Sequence record: OZ035819.1 | Direction: 5' to 3' (one strand) | Length of the DNA stretch: 43,420 nt | Origin: Kagunavirus LM02P1 | Shown here: positions 29,529 through 40,335 of the stretch, in pieces | Layout of the letters: each line of letters begins with the position of its first letter | How positions within the stretch are numbered: the first letter of the stretch is position 1 | Made by a program: the position numbers and the translations under genes | Notes under the pieces: generated by a model | Databases searched by the model: none | Seen by the model: only the letters and a program-made list of their open reading frames with translations | What the model was told of the DNA's origin: nothing

Positions 29529-29791
29529 CCCTTCCATCCAGTTATTTTCTCAACTATCAATACGTATTCGAAAGGCCACTCCAAATTCTGCACCCATTTA
29601 ATTTCCTTCGTCTGGTCCAGTTGCTCGGGGTCTACCGTTTCATACTTAATCGCAACGTAGACCGTTAGTGGAAGAAGGATAATTAGAAGCGGCACTAACA
29701 TTGCCCAGTAACAAACAAATGCCACAAACCCGCCAAATACCCTGAACGTTTTACGAATCATTTCAAATCCTCCTCTGTTACCCGATTCCAC
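29525..29791 (-). CDS. small membrane protein
   Basis: Hydrophobic segment FVAFVCYWAMLVPLLIILLPLTVYVAI; start uncertain (overlaps nuclease gene end). Confidence 0.35.
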   Translation of the reverse strand: MESGNRGGFEMIRKTFRVFGGFVAFVCYWAMLVPLLIILLPLTVYVAIKYETVDPEQLDQTKEIKWVQNLEWPFEYVLIVEKITGWKG

Positions 29792-30999
29792 TCAGGCCGT
29801 TTGTCGTCTGCCGTTGCAACGCATGGTGCGCCTGGCTTACGGGTGATGAAGTCTTTCAGTTCTTCTTCCGGTATTACTTTAACCGCTTCGGTAGGGGTCA
29901 TGAGCACTTCTTTAGTCAGCTTGTCGCCGTAGAGTTCTGCCACTTTCTCTGCGTCTTTCCACGCACGATTACCCGGCCTGCCTTCAACCAACTTGTACCC
30001 CGGCACTTTCTTACCGGAATGCAAAGCGGCGGCCATAGCTTTCTCAACCTTGTCGATGTGCTGGCGCAACAACGGCAACTTCTCATACTCAGATACGAGT
30101 TGCTCCGGCGTAAGTTCCAGTGCAAAGTCATCTTCCAGTTCTCCGGCCAGTACCGAATTAACGGTTTTTGTACGCGCGGCGCACTGTTCAGAGAACCGGC
30201 ACCACTGACAGCCATCGACCGACGGCCTGAAGTCCGACGCCTTCAGGTTCTTCTTACCGCGGAAATAGGCATCAAGAGCCAACAGCGCGCGTTTCTGGGC
30301 AAACTTAGCGAACAGCTCCAGCCCCTCAGCCGAGATGTCCCACTCCGACGCGCCACCCGCGTACGGCTGGAAGATAACCAGGCGAACTGTTGTTATGTGA
30401 TAACGTCTCTTGAGTCGGCGATAAACACCGAGAGCATAGAGCATAAGCTGTTTGTTTTCTTTCGCTTCGACACGATGCCGCCCTGTTTTAAGGTCGCCAA
30501 TAATTAGCATGTGCTCGTCTGTGTTCGCCAGCTCCTGGACGGCAACAAGGTCGGCGGTTCCGAATGTCTCGACGCCTTCGTAACCTGGATGCAGCACCTC
30601 AGTAAGATTGACGCGCATCTCCAGTTTTGCGTAAGTAGCCACGTCGATAATCGCTTTGCAGTAGTCGGTGTACTTTGTACACTGGTCAATCATGTCCGCC
30701 GTAATAAGTACCGCGCCTTTCATCGGACTGATTAGCGCCTTAATCTGGCCTTTACCCTCATCCAGTACATATGCACCTACTTCACGTGCTAACGGTAGCG
30801 CAGTTCCGCGGATATAGGCATTTAGGTGCACTTCTGCGATTGTATGACATGCGGTCCCTGTAACGGCAGCTTTACCCGATTCGTTAGGAATGTCTTTTTC
30901 ACACGCCAGTGATGCGGCACAGGTAAGCCACTTTTTAGCACCTGATGGCGACAGTAAGGCGTGCACATCGTTATTGCCGCCGCGTTCTTTTAAAATCAT
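29758..30999 (-). CDS. PD-(D/E)XK nuclease, DUF2800/Cas4-like
   Basis: 413 aa; N-terminal LSPSGAKKWLTCAAS motif as I recall for this family; sits between SSB and primase as in many phage replication modules. Confidence 0.55.
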   Translation of the reverse strand: MILKERGGNNDVHALLSPSGAKKWLTCAASLACEKDIPNESGKAAVTGTACHTIAEVHLNAYIRGTALPLAREVGAYVLDEGKGQIKALISPMKGAVLITADMIDQCTKYTDYCKAIIDVATYAKLEMRVNLTEVLHPGYEGVETFGTADLVAVQELANTDEHMLIIGDLKTGRHRVEAKENKQLMLYALGVYRRLKRRYHITTVRLVIFQPYAGGASEWDISAEGLELFAKFAQKRALLALDAYFRGKKNLKASDFRPSVDGCQWCRFSEQCAARTKTVNSVLAGELEDDFALELTPEQLVSEYEKLPLLRQHIDKVEKAMAAALHSGKKVPGYKLVEGRPGNRAWKDAEKVAELYGDKLTKEVLMTPTEAVKVIPEEELKDFITRKPGAPCVATADDKRPEWNRVTEEDLK

Positions 31000-31493
31000 T
31001 TCTCGGCTCCGTTAACTGTAAACCCGTATTTAATTTCGGCTTGCCTACGAGCCTTAGCCGCGTTCTCTAACCTATCGTAAGCACCTAAATAAATTGGCGC
31101 CCCATCTACATAAATTCTGGCGACCCACTTACCAGAGCGTTTATGAAACCCAACGCCTTTAACACCTGAAGCATTGTCAGTCCGTATTTTGGTGCCGTGG
31201 GCGATACTACCTCGTCGCATTTTTATAAGATTTTCTATTCTGTTATCAGTTCTATCTTTATTTGCGTGGCGAATTACTTCCCCTGGCGCTATCTCCCCAT
31301 TAAACATCTCCCAAACCACGTGGTGGATAAGTTTAGTAACCCCGTTAAAACGTAGTATTTTGAATTCACTTCCGTCGTTATCCACCCTCACACTCCCAGC
31401 TTCTTGGCCTATTTTTACCGATTTTGATGGTCTTATCTTCCAATACAATTTCCCTGTGACAGGGTCGTAGTCAAACAGTTCATGCCAATTCAT
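30996..31493 (-). CDS. HNH homing endonuclease with C-terminal AP2 DNA-binding domain
   Basis: HNH region HHVVWEMFNG...IRHANKDRTDNRIENL; AP2-like region GVKGVGFHKRSGKWVARIYVDG; ATG at 31493 with GGGAGG RBS; locally AT-rich by eye. Confidence 0.7.
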   Translation of the reverse strand: MNWHELFDYDPVTGKLYWKIRPSKSVKIGQEAGSVRVDNDGSEFKILRFNGVTKLIHHVVWEMFNGEIAPGEVIRHANKDRTDNRIENLIKMRRGSIAHGTKIRTDNASGVKGVGFHKRSGKWVARIYVDGAPIYLGAYDRLENAAKARRQAEIKYGFTVNGAEK

Positions 31494-31762
31494 ACCCTGA
31501 CCTCCCACTGGTCGATTAAATGCCGTGTCTTATGGTCACAATGCATCGCCCAGCTATACATCGACTCGAAGACATAAAAGTCACTTTTAACGAAAGTCGT
31601 GCGCTTAATCTGCGACAGGTGACGGCCTATATCTTTCGGCTTTGGTACTTTGCCTAAGAACGCCATCTCTTCCATCTGGTGCGCACCCGACGGCGCACGT
31701 AACAGCCACAACACCTCTGTGTTATCCCGGCGGTCGATGCCGCGGTAGAGTTGGTAAATCAT
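31490..31762 (-). CDS. hypothetical protein (90 aa)
   Basis: Stop overlaps HNH start (ATGA coupling). Confidence 0.4.
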   Translation of the reverse strand: MIYQLYRGIDRRDNTEVLWLLRAPSGAHQMEEMAFLGKVPKPKDIGRHLSQIKRTTFVKSDFYVFESMYSWAMHCDHKTRHLIDQWEVRV

Positions 31763-32675: not shown

Positions 32676-34943
32676 CTATTCCAAATCTTCCTCTGTCACT
32701 GTCAGCATTTCATTCGGTTCGTATATTGTCTTCGGAATCTTGTTATCCGTTATTCGGGTGTTCAGCCTGTAACGGCCTGGAATTATCTGATTGTTTTCGT
32801 CGGTCCCTGGCACAAGATAACCCGCCTCAACCATTTTCTTAATCTTCCCACGTTCTATGGCTTCTTTGGAGTTAAACGCCTTTGCGTTAGGGTCGGACTG
32901 TGCGAGCTTATTTGCCGCAGCTACTGTGATACCTTCGTTGCCATTGTAGGTTCCTTCCGCCAGTTCAAACGCCGCCAGTATCGTGGCCTCCGAACTGTTG
33001 ACGGCGTTCTCTACGGTTTTACGTACGTTTTCTTTACCTTCCTTTGTCAGCCCTTCTTCCCGCTCTTTCTCCTCATCGGTCTTGAATGGCTCGAATCCCC
33101 AAGGCATCAATACAAGCGCCTTGTGCGGTTCAGGCAGGTCGAGGTTTACGATTGTGCCGTATTCCTCGGTGGAACCGAGGAACTCAACCGCGCGGTACTC
33201 TTTCGGCGGAGGTGCTTCACGGAACTGTACCGACTCCAGCACCATGCCAACCGTCTTCTGTTGGGGGCCGTGCTTAAATTTCGAGTGGTATACGTTTATC
33301 TGACGGTCGGTTGCACGTTCGATTGTCAGTTCCACGTCGACACCCGCATACAGCGCCCCGCTGCCACGGGCTTTCTTTCCGCCCTTCGGGGTATGGTGGA
33401 CAACGCCTACCGCAGCTTTAGTCGCGTCGCGTACTTCTTTCAGGATGGCGATAACTTTACCCATACCGATCGCCGTTGATGAACTGTTCTCGTCGAACTT
33501 ATCAATCGTCAGGGCCAGCGTCTGGTTGAGTGTGTCGAACGCAACCATACCAATTGGCTCGTCGCCTGCAGTTTCGCGCATCAACTTAATCAGGTTTTTC
33601 AGTTTGCCGACTTCGCCCATGTCGATGACATGTACGTAATCTTTACCTTCCTCGCCATATTTAGCGGCTAGTGCATCAATACGGGTGCGTGTAGCGGCAC
33701 CGCCCTCGCCATCGATATAGAAATGGTGGCAACGCTGGGTATCCGCCCCCGCAAACCGGTATCCGGCGGCGCTGAGGTACATCATCCCCAGCGTATAGAA
33801 CGATTTGTACGTACCTGATTCCCCGACAATATCCCAGATACAATCTGACGGCATGTACCCTTCAACGACGAAATCCGCCTTTACTGGTTCTGGTAGCTCG
33901 TCCTCCTCTGAGTCATCATTGTCTTCCAGGTCGTCGAGGCTGCATGAAACTGATTCACGCGCACCCCAGCCGATAGCCTCTGCGACTTCACTGAATGGCA
34001 GCCCTGTAGCGTCACACGCATACTTCCACACCTCTTTCGGCGACATGCCCTCGGTTGCCGTGATGTCGGTGTCGTGAATCATGGTTACGTTAGGCGCTTC
34101 GTATCCCTCGCGCGGGAAGCACAACAGGAAGTCGTCCGGGCGTGGAGTCGGGTCGCTATAGTTTTCGGCGTGTTCTGGTGTGGCGGGCATCTTAAGGCCG
34201 CGTGGCGTCAAGATGCCGCCGTGCTCGAAGGCCAGTGCTTCAAACGCATCGGTAAACGCAGTGCGCAGTTCTTCCGGTATCTGGTAATCCGATGCGCTGC
34301 TCACCTCGTAATCCGGGATGCCTTCCAGTAACTCGCCGGGGTCAATCAGGTCATTGCGGCGCGACCAGATAACCTGAGAGCCAACCGGCGGCAGGTACAT
34401 CGGCTGGGACAGAGTAAACCCGCTGCGGTCCGCGCCCATGCCTTTGAAGAAGTGCTCCAGCAACCCGTGACGTACGCGGATGATGTCACCGCCTTCGACC
34501 GGGCGGGCCAGCGGCATGACGACGCGAAAGCGTGGAGACTCATCGGTATGGGATGCCGTGGTGTAAACGCACATGGCTTTACGGCCTCGCTTAACCAGGC
34601 GCACTGCTTCCTGGTACTCTTCCGGCGTTGCGCTGTCGAAGTCAAGATACGCCAGTGACGATTTGGTTACAGACGCGTCACAGCGATAGAAGAAGCCTTT
34701 ACGCGCATGCTTAAAGTCACCTGTTTCCGGGTCTTTTACGGTGCTGTGCGTTGAGTCGCACGCGGCAGTGATATACCCCGGCGCTGTCTTAGGGTTAATC
34801 CCGTCATGAACAGCATCAAGCGGCTGGATTAACTCTTTCAGGTCGTCCAGTGTTGCCGTATGTGTGGTTCTGACGTTTATATCCTTTTTCTCCGCCCGCG
34901 CGTTGCGACGGGACCACGAGTAGGATAAAATTACATCGGACAT
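32676..34943 (-). CDS. bifunctional primase-polymerase (AEP) / P-loop helicase
   Basis: 755 aa; AEP motifs AYLDFD and TTASHTDESPRFRVVMP; C-terminal Walker A GESGTYKS, Walker B-like MVAFD. Confidence 0.75.
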   Translation of the reverse strand: MSDVILSYSWSRRNARAEKKDINVRTTHTATLDDLKELIQPLDAVHDGINPKTAPGYITAACDSTHSTVKDPETGDFKHARKGFFYRCDASVTKSSLAYLDFDSATPEEYQEAVRLVKRGRKAMCVYTTASHTDESPRFRVVMPLARPVEGGDIIRVRHGLLEHFFKGMGADRSGFTLSQPMYLPPVGSQVIWSRRNDLIDPGELLEGIPDYEVSSASDYQIPEELRTAFTDAFEALAFEHGGILTPRGLKMPATPEHAENYSDPTPRPDDFLLCFPREGYEAPNVTMIHDTDITATEGMSPKEVWKYACDATGLPFSEVAEAIGWGARESVSCSLDDLEDNDDSEEDELPEPVKADFVVEGYMPSDCIWDIVGESGTYKSFYTLGMMYLSAAGYRFAGADTQRCHHFYIDGEGGAATRTRIDALAAKYGEEGKDYVHVIDMGEVGKLKNLIKLMRETAGDEPIGMVAFDTLNQTLALTIDKFDENSSSTAIGMGKVIAILKEVRDATKAAVGVVHHTPKGGKKARGSGALYAGVDVELTIERATDRQINVYHSKFKHGPQQKTVGMVLESVQFREAPPPKEYRAVEFLGSTEEYGTIVNLDLPEPHKALVLMPWGFEPFKTDEEKEREEGLTKEGKENVRKTVENAVNSSEATILAAFELAEGTYNGNEGITVAAANKLAQSDPNAKAFNSKEAIERGKIKKMVEAGYLVPGTDENNQIIPGRYRLNTRITDNKIPKTIYEPNEMLTVTEEDLE

Positions 34944-35002
34944 ATTGTATATTCCTTCAGCAAGTAATTTGGCCTCGGCGTTCGCCGCGTCGGGGCTTTC
35001 TT

Positions 35003-35278
35003 TTATTCCAGGTCGCGGGAGATATTACCCTCGGGGACCAACACTTTTCCAATACTTCTCGCTTTCTCTGTAATAGGCGTCGCTCTTGTTGCCCGATAAA
35101 ACTTTCCTTTATTAAGAATCTCACCATGTCGCTCGAGCACATCTAAAGCATGTTTAATCGGGCTTACACCGTAATTATCCAACCGGTATCTCCGAAGCCC
35201 GTCTACTGTAAAAGCGCCGTTCGCTTCGGTCAGTCTGCGTGCACACATTAATATGTTTTTCTGGAATTTAGTTAGCAT
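35003..35278 (-). CDS. hypothetical protein (91 aa)
   Basis: Second gene of leftward early operon. Confidence 0.4.
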   Translation of the reverse strand: MLTKFQKNILMCARRLTEANGAFTVDGLRRYRLDNYGVSPIKHALDVLERHGEILNKGKFYRATRATPITEKARSIGKVLVPEGNISRDLE

Positions 35279-35447
35279 CTTTTACGTTCTCCTTAATCCA
35301 CGCCTCCACAGTAGCGCGGTCAAACGTACCCGGCTGACGGTAGCCGTTAATAACACGACAACACTCCGGGAACTTTCCTGACCGAAGCCAGCGATTAAGA
35401 GTCATAGGGGAAACCCCGATTAAGTCTGCTACTTCTTTCTGTGTCAT
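35268..35447 (-). CDS. AlpA/excisionase-type HTH DNA-binding protein
   Basis: ATG at 35447 with RBS; motif MTQKEVADLIGVSPMTLNRWLRSGKFP. Confidence 0.55.
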   Translation of the reverse strand: MTQKEVADLIGVSPMTLNRWLRSGKFPECCRVINGYRQPGTFDRATVEAWIKENVKDAN

Positions 35448-35476
35448 TTTATGCGCCCTCTTTATCAAGTGAAACA

Positions 35477-35505
35477 ACTATAACACCTACAATAGCCAAA
35501 CACAA
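35477..35505 (-). promoter_or_regulatory. sigma70-type promoter TTGTGT-N17-TATAGT for leftward replication operon
   Basis: Hexamers with 17-nt spacer read on minus strand upstream of 35447. Confidence 0.45.
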
Positions 35506-35868
35506 CCTATTGACAAAATAAAATGTAGCTGTAAAATCAACGTATCGAAGAGCTTTAGTTCAGAATTACTTAGAAACAATATTCTTAAGTCTCGGGTACT
35601 TAAAGCCCCGCCCTAAAGCGGGGCGCTAAATAGTACTCTTGGTAACGTTAGTATCTAAGTTTCCTCAAAGTAACAGCAAGTGGCAAGAAAGCCCCCGTCT
35701 ATTTAAATTTTACCCTCCTACATAAGCCACTGATAATTAAAAGTTTCTATAGATGCCGTAAGCAAGGTAGAGAGTACTTCACTCCGCTGGGGTGGGCTAA
35801 CGCCCACCCACTGCGTTGCGTACTCTTTTAAGAAACGAAAGAATCACAACGGCAACGTAACTATTCTC

Positions 35869-35897
35869 TTGCACGCCCCAACATAATAGGATACTAT
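35869..35897 (+). promoter_or_regulatory. sigma70-type early promoter TTGCAC-N17-TACTAT
   Basis: Same architecture as 37065-37093, 4676-4704 and 13908-13936; followed by conserved leader TTATCGAAACGAGA. Confidence 0.55.
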
Positions 35898-35931
35898 TCA
35901 CTTATCGAAACGAGACAGAGGAGTGAGGGTT

Positions 35932-36114
35932 ATGTTTAAACGTGGTCAGTTGGTTAAAACTGTACAGGGCCAATATGGAATTATTAAACGAGTTCCGAAT
36001 AAAGTTCCAGGGTCGTACCATCTCACGCACCCAGAATGGGACTTTGACGTGGGGGTGCGTGAAGACGAGCTAACACTCATCGGCAACAATTTTAAATTCA
36101 AAGGGGCGAAGTGA
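35932..36114 (+). CDS. early protein (60 aa)
   Basis: ATG at 35932 with RBS GGAGTGAGGG; first gene after early promoter. Confidence 0.45.
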   Translation: MFKRGQLVKTVQGQYGIIKRVPNKVPGSYHLTHPEWDFDVGVREDELTLIGNNFKFKGAK

Positions 36115-36347
36115 TGGAAGAATTAATTTGCGTTACCAGTCTCTGCGATTACTTCACAGAAGGAAAGCGTTATACGTTAAGTATCGATGGGTACGTTACC
36201 TCTGATGATGGCGATGATTATCGGGTAACTGACGAGGATGTATATGAAGGGCGTATGGGTGTTTATACCTGGAGATGGTTAGCATTATTCACAACGGCAT
36301 CGAATCATGATGCTCGTGCCGACGACTCTGAGGGAGGTTGCCGTTAA
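36114..36347 (+). CDS. early acidic protein (77 aa)
   Basis: ATGA coupling; D/E-rich (DDGDDYRVTDEDVYEG). Confidence 0.45.
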   Translation: MEELICVTSLCDYFTEGKRYTLSIDGYVTSDDGDDYRVTDEDVYEGRMGVYTWRWLALFTTASNHDARADDSEGGCR

Positions 36348-36604
36348 TGACTAACACTGAACTGGAAACTGTTGCCGAAAAACTGCATAAGGCGCGAGTA
36401 ATGGCCCGGGGCGCTGGACTGGAGCAGTTTTACAACATGTGGCGCACCGCAACGCGCGACCCTGATTTTCTGCGAACTGGGTGTCTCTTGTATAAAGACG
36501 TTTATCCTGTTCGTGCTCGCAAGGACTACGGGTGGGTTCGTGAGACACCTAATCTTTTGTGGTGTTGGGCGCATGGTGAGTTTTGGGTAAGGGTTAAGGA
36601 CTAA
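36347..36604 (+). CDS. early protein (85 aa)
   Basis: ATG at 36347 with RBS GAGGGAGG. Confidence 0.45.
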   Translation: MTNTELETVAEKLHKARVMARGAGLEQFYNMWRTATRDPDFLRTGCLLYKDVYPVRARKDYGWVRETPNLLWCWAHGEFWVRVKD

Positions 36605-36607
36605 GTT

Positions 36608-36769
36608 ATGAGAGAAGCATCCGAACGGTGGGCCGTCGTCGAAGGGCTGCCCGTTAACAAGGGTTCAAAGAAAGAGTACCTGAACGTTAAGACGCGTCTC
36701 GCGTGGCGGGCGTGGAAAGCTGGTGTGCAGTTCCGTGCTGGTATAACAGGTGGGGTGACAGGTCAATAG
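36608..36769 (+). CDS. small basic protein (53 aa)
   Basis: ATG at 36608 with RBS AAGGA; below ORF-track cutoff. Confidence 0.35.
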   Translation: MREASERWAVVEGLPVNKGSKKEYLNVKTRLAWRAWKAGVQFRAGITGGVTGQ

Positions 36770-36792
36770 CTTACTATTTTACTGAGTGACTT

Positions 36793-36830
36793 ACGCTGCT
36801 ACACAGCAGCGTATCATTTTTCTCATTTTT
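36793..36830 (+). terminator. intrinsic terminator
   Basis: Hairpin ACGCTGCT-acac-AGCAGCGT followed by ATCATTTTTCTCATTTTT. Confidence 0.6.
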
Positions 36831-36883
36831 GTTCTATTTCACCAAACGCAACAATCGAAGCGACTATTGCAGGAGATGCAACA

Positions 36884-37057
36884 ATGATTACTAGAGAACA
36901 GGCCGAACGACTAATCACGTTAATCGACACGATGATTGATGTAAAAACCGATTTAGCAACGGCAACAGAGGAATACGCTACCTGGTCGCTTGAAGAAAGA
37001 GAAGCAGAAGCGGAGCGCGAGTTACTGGCGTTCATCGATTCCATAACACACCAATAA
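36884..37057 (+). CDS. small protein (57 aa)
   Basis: ATG at 36884 with RBS AGGAGA. Confidence 0.35.
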   Translation: MITREQAERLITLIDTMIDVKTDLATATEEYATWSLEEREAEAERELLAFIDSITHQ

Positions 37058-37064
37058 AATTTAC

Positions 37065-37093
37065 TTGCACACACAGATATAATAGACTACTAT
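37065..37093 (+). promoter_or_regulatory. sigma70-type promoter TTGCAC-N17-TACTAT
   Basis: Same architecture as 35869-35897; followed by leader TTATCGAAACGAGAGGAGAGAGAAG. Confidence 0.55.
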
Positions 37094-37122
37094 TCAGTTA
37101 TCGAAACGAGAGGAGAGAGAAG

Positions 37123-37251
37123 ATGAAAGATTATAGCGAAGTGACTTTAGGTGAGTTGCAGGGCGAGTACGAAGATATGCTCTACCCGTTCATCTGCGAC
37201 GGAGATTACAACGGCGTCTATAACGGAGTGAGCGAAGAATATGAACACTAA
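37123..37251 (+). CDS. small acidic protein (42 aa)
   Basis: ATG at 37123 after conserved leader/RBS. Confidence 0.3.
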   Translation: MKDYSEVTLGELQGEYEDMLYPFICDGDYNGVYNGVSEEYEH

Positions 37252-37975
37252 AAACGAAGTATTCGAATACCTGATTGACCAGCTATGGCATCAGGTAAAT
37301 AAGAAAGATGTCACATCTTTCAATGTGTCTGTGCGGATATCCGACCTTGATGAGGTCAAGCAGGTAATTCACAACCTACAGCAGCATATCGCTGGTAAGG
37401 ACGACGAAATACGTATGCTGAAAGACAGCCTACGGCAGCAGATGGCGAACAACCCCCACAAGCAGCAGTGCGAAGACCTGGCGCATGAGGTGCAGTCACT
37501 TAAGAATCAGTTACGTGATATGTCGGAATTGGTGGATGAGTTGATGGGTACAATAACGTTAATGAATGAAGACTTTGGCCGCGTAACAGGGCGGAGCGGT
37601 CCTTTACCTAAAGGGGAGAGCTACGTAGTAGGTGAGCACGGGCCTGAGCAATCCGGTTGCCGTAAGGGAGATACTCAGGAATGCGAGCACTCTTGGATTA
37701 TTATGCCTGGGTTGTTTCTTAGCGAAGGCAATCCGAACAACGTTCCTGGTAGTGAGTTATGCTGTAAATGTGGTAAGCGTGAGTGGGATGTTAAGGGATA
37801 TAAACCGAAAGATGATACCCAGGAATGCTCCTATAACTGGCGATTCGTTAATGGTAAGGCTCCCGCCGTATGTATTAATTGCGGAATGACTAAATCCAGC
37901 AAGTGTGAGCACGAATGGTGCTTTTACGATGGTGGTGCTTTGAAGATGTGCAGAATATGCGGGCTAAAGAAATGA
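37241..37975 (+). CDS. coiled-coil protein with three C-terminal zinc-ribbon-like repeats
   Basis: 244 aa; three units of C-x-H/Y-x-W ... C-x-x-C-G (CEHSW...CCKCG, CSYNW...CINCG, CEHEW...CRICG). Confidence 0.55.
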   Translation: MNTKNEVFEYLIDQLWHQVNKKDVTSFNVSVRISDLDEVKQVIHNLQQHIAGKDDEIRMLKDSLRQQMANNPHKQQCEDLAHEVQSLKNQLRDMSELVDELMGTITLMNEDFGRVTGRSGPLPKGESYVVGEHGPEQSGCRKGDTQECEHSWIIMPGLFLSEGNPNNVPGSELCCKCGKREWDVKGYKPKDDTQECSYNWRFVNGKAPAVCINCGMTKSSKCEHEWCFYDGGALKMCRICGLKK

Positions 37976-38175
37976 CCAGTATCTTATTTATCTGGGTACT
38001 ATCCGCAGGCCAGATGCACCTCGCGGCATCGGAAACGTTTTATTCTATGGAGGCGTGCCAGTCCGCGGCACGCGCAGCAGAGAACGCGCACTTCCTGTTT
38101 CAGGGTGACAAGCCCAACGATTCAGAGGTACGCGCTATCTGCTCACCTAAGCGACTCGGTAAACAGGAGAAGTGA
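37972..38175 (+). CDS. small secreted/periplasmic protein (67 aa)
   Basis: ATGA coupling; N-terminal signal-peptide-like ILFIWVLSAGQMHLAAS, two Cys in mature part. Confidence 0.4.
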   Translation: MTSILFIWVLSAGQMHLAASETFYSMEACQSAARAAENAHFLFQGDKPNDSEVRAICSPKRLGKQEK

Positions 38176-38176
38176 T

Positions 38177-38443
38177 ATGGTACAGAGATACGAGTTATCG
38201 GATAAATGGGAAGAGCCTAAGATGGCGAAGTATGACTGGGGTGATTATGTAGAGTACGACAGCTATAAGGAACTTGACGACTATTACCAGGAACGCATCG
38301 CCGATGCCAACGAGGAAATAGAGGTTCTCGTCGCAAGACTGGCGGAAGTAAACGCCGAGTTACAGAAATACAAAGACCAGTTCCCGGATTACGTCGAGTG
38401 CGCGAACTGTGGGTCAGTTACGCATGTGGAAGGGGTGGAGTGA
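38177..38443 (+). CDS. small acidic protein, MVQRY paralogue A (88 aa)
   Basis: ATG at 38177 with RBS AGGAGA; begins MVQRY; C-terminal CANCG. Confidence 0.45.
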   Translation: MVQRYELSDKWEEPKMAKYDWGDYVEYDSYKELDDYYQERIADANEEIEVLVARLAEVNAELQKYKDQFPDYVECANCGSVTHVEGVE

Positions 38444-38667
38444 TGGTACAGAGATACTTATTACAGGGTGGTTTAATAGGGCCGCACGATGAAGGTGATT
38501 GGGTAGGTTACGAAGACTACGCGGCGCTTGAGCGTAAGTTTGACTCGATATTAAACCTCCTTGTTAAACTAGATGATGATTTGGGTTACGGTAAGATACC
38601 TGATGAATATGCCTACGACAGAATCGGTGAGATTATCGAGAAGCACCAAAATGACCTTAGCGACTGA
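38443..38667 (+). CDS. small acidic protein, MVQRY paralogue B (74 aa)
   Basis: ATG at 38443 (TGATG coupling); begins MVQRY like the upstream gene. Confidence 0.45.
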   Translation: MVQRYLLQGGLIGPHDEGDWVGYEDYAALERKFDSILNLLVKLDDDLGYGKIPDEYAYDRIGEIIEKHQNDLSD

Positions 38668-38818
38668 CATCCTGAAAAACAGCGGCAAAGCGCCGCTGTC
38701 GCCACGTAAACGACATTTCAACACGCATCCGACGTATCTTGAATTACATGAGCGCCGGAAGACACCGGCGCAACGACTGGCTGAATATTGGAGAAAGCAT
38801 GACTACTATCGCGTTTGA
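38651..38818 (+). CDS. small basic protein (55 aa)
   Basis: ATG at 38651 overlapping the upstream gene end; K/R-rich. Confidence 0.3.
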   Translation: MTLATDILKNSGKAPLSPRKRHFNTHPTYLELHERRKTPAQRLAEYWRKHDYYRV

Positions 38819-39236
38819 CGGTAAGACGATGGCCTGCGACACCCGAGTTACCGCGGGCGACACGTATTTCAACACAGATACCAAGATATACGAGAGTGAT
38901 GCTTATGTTATCGGGGTCGCCGGTGACGCGGGCTGTGGTACTATGCTTGTTCAGGTATCAAATATCCTGACCATGCGTACCTATGAGTATAACTTTAAGG
39001 CTATTGTATACGAGAAGCACACCAGACGTGTTTTCTATGTGTCATTCGATAAAAGCTGGGGGTCAAATAGCTGCGTTGTCCCAATTGTTGATAGCTACTT
39101 CGCCGTCGGTTCAGGGGCTGATTTCGCGCGCGCAGCTATGGAATGTGAGTATTCCGCACAGGGGGCAGTGGCCGTTGCATCGAAGTTTGACACTAACACC
39201 GGCGGCAAGATTATTACCAAACAACTATTAGGATAA
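38799..39236 (+). CDS. HslV/proteasome beta-subunit-like Ntn hydrolase
   Basis: ATG at 38799 with RBS GGAGA; after Met the protein starts TTI (HslV starts TTIVSV); VTAGDTYFNTDTK, YVIGVAGDAGCG and FAVGSGADFARAA parallel HslV segments. Confidence 0.55.
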   Translation: MTTIAFDGKTMACDTRVTAGDTYFNTDTKIYESDAYVIGVAGDAGCGTMLVQVSNILTMRTYEYNFKAIVYEKHTRRVFYVSFDKSWGSNSCVVPIVDSYFAVGSGADFARAAMECEYSAQGAVAVASKFDTNTGGKIITKQLLG

Positions 39237-39604: not shown

Positions 39605-39869
39605 GTTATTCTGGTTCGGCGGTATGCTGGCAATCGGAGGCGCATCGCTGTTTAATGTATATCATCCCAGCGTTGACGACGGGCTATTTGGCCGGGTGCT
39701 CTATATCCTGACCGCTATTGTCTGCGCCGCCGGGTGTATCCACCTGTTACAGGGCAGCATGTCACCTACGCTGCCTGAGACATTAATCACATTAGTTGCG
39801 CTGCGTCAGATTCGTCATGCGTGGCTGTCATACGGAGGATATAAGCGTGTCTCGAAATATTTCAGATAA
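39597..39869 (+). CDS. small membrane protein (second holin-like / lysis regulator, putative)
   Basis: ATG at 39597 with RBS GGAGG, overlapping holin stop (ATGAATGA); two hydrophobic segments. Confidence 0.45.
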   Translation: MNELFWFGGMLAIGGASLFNVYHPSVDDGLFGRVLYILTAIVCAAGCIHLLQGSMSPTLPETLITLVALRQIRHAWLSYGGYKRVSKYFR

Positions 39870-40335
39870 TGGATTGCATTTTACCGCTGCGTTCGAGGGG
39901 TTCCGCGGAACTGCATATCGCGCTACACCGAACGAGACGTACCTGACTATTGGTTACGGTCATTACGGGCCGGATGTAACGCCAGGCAAGACCATCACCC
40001 CGGGGCAAGGCCTCCTGTTACTAAATCGCGATATGGCGAAGGCCGTAGGCGCGGTTGATGCAGCAGCACACCATTCACTGACACAGGCACAGTTCGACGC
40101 TGTGTGCGACCTGGTCTATAACGCGGGTGCGGGCGTGATTGCCGCTACCACCGGAACCGGTAAGGCGCTGCGCTCCGGTGATGTTGCGACGCTGCGGGCT
40201 AAGCTGGCGCTGTTCATCAACCAGAACGGCAAACCGTTGCTCGGCCTGCGCCGCCGTACAGCCGGACGGCTCGCACTGTTCGACGGTAAACCGTGGCAGG
40301 AGGCTGAGGCTATTGGGCGCGCGGTGAAAGGTTGA
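39847..40335 (+). CDS. endolysin, GH24 phage lysozyme
   Basis: GTG at 39847 after GGAGG; ISDNGLHFTAAFEGFRGTAYRA...YLTIGYGH (catalytic E, TIGxGH) and C-terminal RRRTAGRLALF; frame open from 39796. Confidence 0.75.
   Translation: MSRNISDNGLHFTAAFEGFRGTAYRATPNETYLTIGYGHYGPDVTPGKTITPGQGLLLLNRDMAKAVGAVDAAAHHSLTQAQFDAVCDLVYNAGAGVIAATTGTGKALRSGDVATLRAKLALFINQNGKPLLGLRRRTAGRLALFDGKPWQEAEAIGRAVKG

Follow-up and report, generated by a model that had tools for sequence, protein, structure and literature searches.

The question raised by this locus is what the first small genes of a lytic phage's rightward operon encode. The window, i.e. the whole stretch of 43,420 nucleotides (nt) from Kagunavirus LM02P1 that was analyzed (sequence record OZ035819.1), contains three consecutive open reading frames (ORFs) of 60 to 85 amino acids on the plus strand, here called A, B and C, which occupy exactly positions 35932-36604, as an earlier note on this DNA had stated. 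That note regarded them as the first genes after the early promoter and as small acidic proteins with candidate anti-restriction or other anti-defence functions, possibly DNA mimics or host-takeover factors. The comparison with 29 related metagenomic loci (IMG/VR) and about 120 GenBank relatives leads to another answer. A, B and C fill slots one to three of a cassette array that heads the rightward small-gene unit, and it is likely, with a probability of roughly 60%, that they belong to an exchangeable array of accessory host-interaction cassettes and are not DNA mimics.

The array is visible in a coverage profile obtained by blastn of the 29 loci across positions 34900-39000. The profile alternates between junctions, which are present in approximately 26-29 of the 29 loci, and ORF bodies found in only 4-12 of them; the cores of ORFs A, B and C were detected in 12, four and seven loci, respectively. 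The constant junctions, J0 to J5 and further ones downstream, have a length of 45-110 nt. All loci have them in one collinear order, J0-J7, with inserts ranging from about 10 nt (an empty slot) to about 740 nt. J0 (35845-35935, plus strand like all junctions described here) comprises a promoter-like box, the leader TATCGAAACGAGA, a Shine-Dalgarno sequence and the start codon of slot A; it is 95.9% identical in about 29 loci. J1 (36072-36120) spans the end codons of slot A, a Shine-Dalgarno sequence (GGGG), a TGATG overlap and the start of the slot B coding sequence (MEEL). Over about 26 loci its identity amounts to 97.3%, and 37 columns are invariant. From J2 (36293-36346; AACGGCATCGAATCATGATGCTCGTGCCGACGACTCTGAGGGAGGTTGCCGT), the common tail of slot B proteins is translated, and the Shine-Dalgarno sequence of slot C also lies within it. 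The J3 block (36605-36715) corresponds to the N-terminal 43 amino acids of ORF D and is 92.9% identical in about 27 loci. Further downstream, J4 (36762-36878; 93.7% identity in about 26 loci) consists of a terminator-like hairpin and the leader of the next slot, while J5 (37045-37122), a second promoter-like cassette, is conserved in about 25 loci. The junctions are 95.9-97.3% identical to the window, whereas the helicase-primase gene of the same loci reaches only 88.3-88.6%. The junctions carry expression signals together with the terminal codons of the flanking ORFs, and in their nucleotide sequence they are better conserved than essential genes.

The slots between the junctions are filled differently from phage to phage. 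All slot A proteins start with MFK(K/R)GQLV and end with LIGNNFKFKGAK, enclosing a hypervariable basic core of about 40 amino acids. Slot B harbors at least six mutually unrelated families, nearly all of which end with ASNHDARADDSEGGCR, and slot C several families; one family resides in slot B of some phages and in slot C of others (hhalign 96.8%). Slots B and C can also be empty, as in loci L004 and L014. At slots A, B and C, about 11, 11 and seven allele classes were distinguished, which form 27 different A/B/C combinations in about 30 genomes, and four-gamete quartets between adjacent slots indicate a near-free assortment of alleles. Presumably, related phages infecting the same cell exchange the cassettes by recombining homologously at the junctions. 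An analogy to integrons and their attC sites was rejected, since the junctions are mutually different, no integrase is present and the order of the cassettes is fixed.

ORF A (35932-36114; 60 amino acids, phrog_12538), ORF B (36114-36347; 77 amino acids) and ORF C (36347-36604; 85 amino acids) are genuine, translationally coupled protein genes, because they possess Shine-Dalgarno sequences, overlapping ends, full-length homologues and low ratios of non-synonymous to synonymous substitution (dN/dS), and because a confident AlphaFold2 (AF2) model of the B core was obtained. A Shine-Dalgarno sequence precedes each of the three ORFs, and the joints A/B (TGATG) and B/C (TAATG) are both stop/start overlaps of 1 nt; ORF D begins 3 nt past ORF C. 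Full-length tblastn matches were found in 87 phage records for ORF A (40-60% identity), in 29 for ORF B, with 53 more sharing only its tail, and in 14 for ORF C. Among 5.8 billion proteins, ORF B had 47 relatives and ORF C had 27, essentially all of them on phage contigs of about 44 kb. An exhaustive phmmer search of 1.84 billion representatives revealed ORF A relatives of 60-63 amino acids only, a family confined to Kagunavirus-type phages; long repeat proteins also matching ORF A were discarded as low-complexity matches without a coherent Pfam assignment. The ORF B core differs from its closest DNA relatives (BPS11Q3 and EM1) by 12-13 synonymous and 5-10 non-synonymous changes, corresponding to a dN/dS of 0.08-0.16, and values of 0.15-0.21 were determined for ORF C. 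Thus, the three genes are conserved among relatives, though patchily and allelically; a lack of conservation had been named beforehand as an argument against a function. The nearest relative of the window's ORF B (92% amino acid identity) lies in Salmonella phage BPS11Q3 (KX405002; locus L037, 1300-1731). In its GenBank entry, ORFs A and B are both left unannotated, and its slot A ORF is cut off by a stop after about 28 codons.

While the small size applies to all three proteins, acidity is restricted to ORF B. This protein contains the quoted sequence DDGDDYRVTDEDVYEG and is indeed strongly acidic (isoelectric point, pI, 4.16), as 17 Asp/Glu residues (22%) stand against seven Lys/Arg residues, resulting in a net charge of -10. 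By contrast, ORF A (net +4, pI 9.70) and ORF C (net +3, pI 9.06) are basic. Acidity is a trait of the whole ORF B family (median core pI 4.05 in 40 family cores), of which an acidic, DEDGDEW-like loop is a hallmark, and the families of ORF A and ORF C are uniformly basic (median pI 9.7 and 9.15). However, acidity does not distinguish ORF B within the operon, since a pI below 5 was calculated for five of the 13 rightward ORFs that lead up to the endolysin gene.

Database scans of ORFs A-G with Pfam, PHROGs and NCBIfam yielded only PHROGs of unknown function and, for ORF E, DUF7438. Searches of PDB sequences with A, B and C gave nothing significant; Gag p30 matches of ORF A (E ~0.05) were judged to be chance. 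An AF2 model of ORF B, calculated with the family alignment, is moderately confident (predicted local distance difference test, pLDDT, 78.7) and shows a six-stranded beta-barrel formed by core residues 2-61, followed by a tail (residues 62-77) predicted to be disordered. For ORF C, a long N-terminal helix and three C-terminal strands were predicted. Judging from its model, ORF B probably has a Gp54-like fold, by which no membership in the Gp54 family is claimed. Gp54 of Escherichia phage Bas11 (PDB 9axb; PF25180, 'Phage antiviral trigger protein Gp54') is a non-essential protein of 66 amino acids that directly binds and activates CapRel(SJ46) by clamping its zinc-finger-like domain (PMC11578894). 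Its discoverers suggested that Gp54 may inhibit another defence system, and its close homologues of SECphi27, Bas5, Bas8 and Bas10 do not activate CapRel(SJ46) (PMC11578894). A BFVD match in phage vB_EcoS-95 turned out, on cross-checking, to be a protein different from the Gp54 homologue of that phage. On a metagenomic Kagunavirus-like contig (P0074), a chimera of 96 amino acids was found that combines an N-terminal half of the ORF C type with a C-terminal half belonging to PF25180 (Gp54). Therefore, recombination occurs within cassettes, too.

As for transcription, the array is separated by a divergent intergenic region of about 450 nt from a leftward gene (35268-35477, minus strand) for a helix-turn-helix (HTH) regulator of the HTH_17/excisionase-like type (Pfam PF12728, E 4.9e-9; phrog_66), which is transcribed away from the array. 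The body of this gene is common to 26 of the 29 loci (about 70% identity), and its 5' end and promoters are allelic among relatives. A consensus scan detected back-to-back sigma-70-like promoters, presumably active, which share their -35 region (35489-35537, both strands). The rightward one (TTGACA-16-TAAAAT, 35510-35537) matches 11 of 12 consensus positions, the leftward one (TTGTCA-16-TATTGT, 35516-35489), directed to the HTH gene, nine of 12. The near-consensus rightward promoter is located 395 nt upstream of ORF A on a segment common to only one of the 29 relatives. In Bas71, an analogous promoter (11/12) occupies the equivalent position, and a terminator-like hairpin separates it from the conserved leader. 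Immediately ahead of ORF A, every relative has the J0 box TTGCAC-N17-TACTAT (35869-35897), and with it the leader, the Shine-Dalgarno sequence and the ATG (35869-35934 in all). The box agrees with the consensus at seven of 12 positions and was not flagged by the scan. The same box recurs in J5 (TTGCAC-N17-TACTAT...TATCGAAACGAGA) upstream of ORF F (37123-37251). The two copies form a direct repeat of 53 nt (35863-35915 and 37059-37111; 81% identity), which occurs exactly twice in the window (0 expected by chance), each time just before a Shine-Dalgarno sequence and a start codon (ORFs A and F). J4 contains an intrinsic-terminator-like hairpin (36792-36813) with a free energy (dG) of -17.7 kcal/mol (z-score -5.2), followed by a T run; the hairpin is identical in Bas71 and Bas73. 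It is likely that A, B, C and D constitute a single four-gene transcription unit extending from the conserved J0 box to the terminator hairpin after D. As to the earlier placement of the genes after an early promoter, promoter-like sequences precede ORF A, but the near-consensus one is remote and the early timing is presumed. RNA sequencing of Kagunavirus K1B4 revealed four early genes, of which the HTH homologue is the only one named (PMC12645636). Because the others are not named, this transcriptome cannot settle the timing of A, B and C.

The divergent promoter region (35489-35845) is itself allelic, being present in only one of 29 relatives. Between the rightward promoter and J0 it contains two GC-rich hairpins (35603-35628, dG -20.7; 35784-35815, dG -22.6; both z about -3.5). 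This hairpin-bearing leader may represent a short leader RNA or small RNA, or an attenuator; an Rfam scan of 35400-37300 gave no family.

On this basis, the preferred interpretation of the array can be formulated and weighed. Alternative, often unrelated coding cassettes lie between fixed junctions in different phages and assort independently, and their products would bind host or phage proteins early after infection, for host takeover or counter-defence. ORF A is a basic first-slot protein with a hypervariable core, whose slot is nearly always filled. ORF B is probably, judging from the predicted structure, a small acidic barrel of the rare kind represented by Gp54 of Bas11 and would most likely act, like Gp54, by protein-protein binding, and ORF C would be an optional basic alpha/beta protein. 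An accessory role is supported by the location of the genes, which is hypervariable and shuffled by recombination and nonetheless under purifying selection. In this respect, the general idea of early genes serving host takeover or counter-defence fits circumstantially, while its narrower version, an acidic DNA mimic with anti-restriction activity, is unlikely. Some observations weigh against the interpretation as a whole. A role of A, B and C against host defences is plausible but unproven. The clustering of alleles was crude (single linkage on DNA), and recent recombinational spread rather than function could be the source of junction conservation. The promoter activity of J0 and the early timing of the unit are presumed from sequence motifs, and the near-consensus promoter lies as far as 395 nt upstream of ORF A. 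The resemblance to Gp54 stems from one predicted model and one method; hmmscan (E up to 1) gave no PF25180 match for ORF B and nine other slot alleles, although the positive controls P0074 (E 8.5e-20) and P0075-P0093 were recognized. Likewise, a profile comparison by hhalign between the 40-sequence core family of ORF B and the 18-sequence Gp54 family resulted in a probability of only 1.9%, and 9axb was not listed when the ORF B model was compared with the PDB by Foldseek. The AF2 model of ORF C is of low confidence (pLDDT 59) and was not used for a fold search.

It is conceivable, though rather unlikely, that the three proteins serve the phage's own programme, e.g. through effects on the HTH regulator, the timing of transcription or the initiation of replication, and have no anti-defence role. 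In that case, the proteins would vary in step with allelic modules for regulation or replication. This would suit the position of A, B and C next to the divergent regulatory region and the HTH gene with its allelic 5' end and promoters, as well as the presence of ORF A in nearly every relative; moreover, ORFs A and D are small and very basic, which is compatible with nucleic acid binding. On the other hand, slots B and C may be empty or occupied by unrelated families, which fits a dispensable accessory better, the alleles of the three slots assort independently, and slot A is truncated in BPS11Q3.

Somewhat less probable is a far-reaching extension of the cassette interpretation, according to which the array is a dedicated, junction-guided exchange system for counter-defence genes, and ORF B and the Gp54 cassettes form one divergent barrel superfamily. 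In that case, the junctions, among them J2 with its possible hairpin, would be under selection both as landing sites for recombination and as signals for expression or processing, and the six-stranded barrels would inhibit host immunity by beta-sheet clamping and be sensed by proteins such as CapRel. If this were true, one would expect the differing sensitivity of Kagunaviruses to Old and similar systems to follow from their slot alleles.

Junction J2 bears on a further possibility. In an alignment of the ORF B family, the first six and the last approximately 20 residues are invariant, whereas the core is about 45-50% identical; the invariant C-terminal 20 amino acids result from translation of J2. 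Across all 29 loci, this junction, the last 52 nt of ORF B, hardly varies, while the sequences flanking it are unrelated, and it is present as a single copy in each of 121 GenBank phage records (at least 93% identity). One could regard the constant termini (MFKKGQLV.../...LIGNNFKFKGAK in slot A and MEEL.../...ASNHDARADDSEGGCR in slot B) as functional tags for docking or degradation, which would account for junction conservation. Nearly all slot B proteins, from at least six unrelated families, share their last 16-20 residues in the same J2 frame. Nevertheless, this explanation is quite improbable. Over about 14 synonymous sites of J2, zero synonymous differences were counted where about five were expected (synonymous divergence, dS, of the adjacent core is about 0.5), and its four-fold degenerate sites are nearly all fixed in 22 distinct sequences. 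In four independent genomes (L006, L016, Bas71 and Bas76), translation of the slot B ORF enters J2 in a different frame or terminates within it. Furthermore, the structure prediction shows the tail as disordered, at low confidence. On this evidence, the constraint on J2 acts on the nucleotides rather than on the peptide.

J2 provides a Shine-Dalgarno sequence and the start context for any occupant of slot C. In addition, an RNA hairpin of 6 bp (GGCAUC/GAUGCU) is suggested by the alignment: pairing is kept in 98.5% of cells, with G-U intermediates. Two double-compensatory pairs were found, both from one sequence; eight of 500 shuffles were equal, and the z-score of the minimum free energy in the window sequence is -0.73. 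Two other ways to pair CGGCA, with 36317-36321 or with 36339-36344, were dismissed, as they exhibited uncompensated mismatches or no variation. In L001, L003, L008, L022 and L026, and also in L009 and L027, a GTG-initiated mini-ORF follows the J2 Shine-Dalgarno sequence. It comprises 16-23 mostly hydrophobic residues (e.g. MNNYPFILIISAVYVVHALWGLV) before the next cassette and could encode a small membrane peptide or a leader peptide.

There remains the DNA mimic. Searches in Pfam, PHROG, NCBIfam and PDB, and with the model of B, revealed no sequence or fold similarity of A, B and C to Ocr (PF08684), ArdA (PF07275) or other mimics, nor was any known anti-defence family linked to the three proteins in Pfam, PHROGs, NCBIfam and PDB sequences. 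The Kagunavirus isolates Bas70-76 (BASEL) 'display a high sensitivity to RM systems', i.e. to restriction-modification (PMC11990801). In the arrays of Bas71, 72, 73 and 76, Bas71 and Bas76 carry ORF B-family alleles with an acidic core (MEELICIES...DEDGDEWDLED), which are only about 50% identical to the window's ORF B; the sensitivity of these phages thus weighs indirectly against a broad anti-restriction role of the ORF B family. That ORF B, perhaps with its neighbours, is an acidic mimic of the Ocr/ArdA type blocking restriction-modification at the start of infection is very improbable, since its small size, probable early expression, high Asp/Glu content and the conserved acidity and acidic loop of its family are offset by the basic nature of A and C, the unmatched anti-restriction families, the restriction-sensitive carriers of related alleles and the frequency of small acidic proteins in the operon. 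For Kagunavirus EcoPhCCP1, anti-CRISPRs have been predicted by machine learning (PMC12919940).

The genes around the three ORFs complete the picture. Sequence matches place the region among Kagunavirus genomes (Guernseyvirinae; K1G-like small siphoviruses); the closest are Escherichia phage AV104 and its relatives, with about 90% identity across approximately 74% of positions 22000-43420. The leftward replication block includes the helicase-primase gene (32676-34943, minus strand) and a 91-amino acid ORF, also on the minus strand, between it and the HTH regulator. Its module also harbors a homing-endonuclease-like ORF with HNH_3 and AP2 domains (30996-31508, minus strand), which adjoins a DUF2800/PD-(D/E)XK nuclease gene (29758-30999). 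To the right, the series of small ORFs extends to the holin and endolysin genes (endolysin 39796-40335). ORF D (36608-36769, plus strand; 53 amino acids, pI 10.6; phrog_15836, E 1.6e-31) is the sole well-conserved protein of the first four genes, although its C-terminus is variable. ORF E (36884-37057, plus strand) encodes an acidic DUF7438 protein of 57 amino acids (Pfam PF24219, E 3.9e-11) and is an optional cassette, its slot being empty in many relatives, in which J4 and J5 are only 9-14 nt apart. ORF G (37241-37975, plus strand; 244 amino acids) possesses a coiled-coil N-terminal part and Cys-rich units (EQSGCRKEDTQEC.H.W...C..CG). Its relatives range from 119 to 259 amino acids and vary in the number of these units; ORF G is internally mosaic and has constant blocks of its own (J6, 37445-37520). 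A stop/start coupling motif, AAGGGG.G.AGTGATGG, was found at three gene joints (36100-36117, 38161-38176 and 38429-38446), and ORFs H and I (38105-38443 and 38398-38667) both contain an MVQRY... start. The repeats around ORFs H and I suggest that further junction-type repeats exist downstream.

The junction-delimited array and the Gp54-like prediction for ORF B are more interesting than the acidity that first drew attention to the locus, as acidity and early position by themselves did not pick out a DNA mimic. The junctions offer a way for a lytic phage to fix gene order and expression signals while changing payloads. Should the cassettes prove to encode factors for takeover or counter-defence, the arrays of about 120 sequenced phages would constitute a compact library of dozens of small proteins at fixed, amplifiable positions that could be screened against panels of defence systems. 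Kagunaviruses are already used as chassis for synthetic biology and therapy, e.g. CM001 (PMC11990801). The predicted ORF B structure would be a second, sequence-unrelated case of a very rare fold sensed by a bacterial immunity protein, and it could help to show what use the barrel is to the phage.

Compared to known systems, ORF B shares with Ocr (T7 gp0.3) and ArdA the position at the start of the early operon, the small size and the strong negative charge. However, a compact beta-barrel is predicted for ORF B, while Ocr and ArdA imitate B-DNA as elongated helical dimers. The parallels to Gp54 of Bas11 go further. Both proteins are small and acidic, Gp54 only mildly so, and gp54, too, stands second in its operon of small genes, which follows the divergent intergenic region of Bas11, a small siphovirus. 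True PF25180 genes are also cassettes in Kagunavirus arrays, as illustrated by XY1 gp47 and the P0074 chimera. On the other hand, ORF B is only 9% identical to Gp54 and without detectable sequence homology to it, and it has a net charge of -10 (Gp54, -3) and a junction-encoded tail.

With regard to shuffling, the hyperplastic regions of T4-type phages, in which replaceable ORFs of unknown function lie between promoter-early stem-loops (PeSLs), each combining a sigma-70-like promoter with a terminator stem-loop (PMC2839356, PMC4122927), are a close parallel. In both cases, short conserved cassettes, regulatory in the T4-type phages and putatively so in the array, flank small ORFs (non-essential ones in PeSL regions), and insertions, deletions and replacements between Kagunavirus relatives are bounded by junctions in the same manner. 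A comparable combination of promoter and stem-loop may be present in many relatives, where the J4 terminator-like hairpin and the J5 promoter-like box abut each other. Yet PeSLs occur in many dispersed copies, while the promoter-like cassette is present only twice per genome and the other junctions once. J1, J2 and J3 are moreover unique, position-specific and located inside coding sequence, and therefore unrelated alleles share terminal peptides, and the order of the genes is kept. Finally, PeSLs reside in T4-like myoviruses, the array in a lytic siphovirus of 43 kb. Lambdoid and other temperate phages exhibit mosaic gene boundaries with short conserved sequences at module junctions. As in these mosaics, alleles of the array are exchanged at gene boundaries between relatives while synteny is kept. 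What separates the Kagunavirus array from them is the regular spacing of its junctions (every 150-300 nt), a conservation exceeding that of essential genes, and its occurrence in a strictly lytic group.

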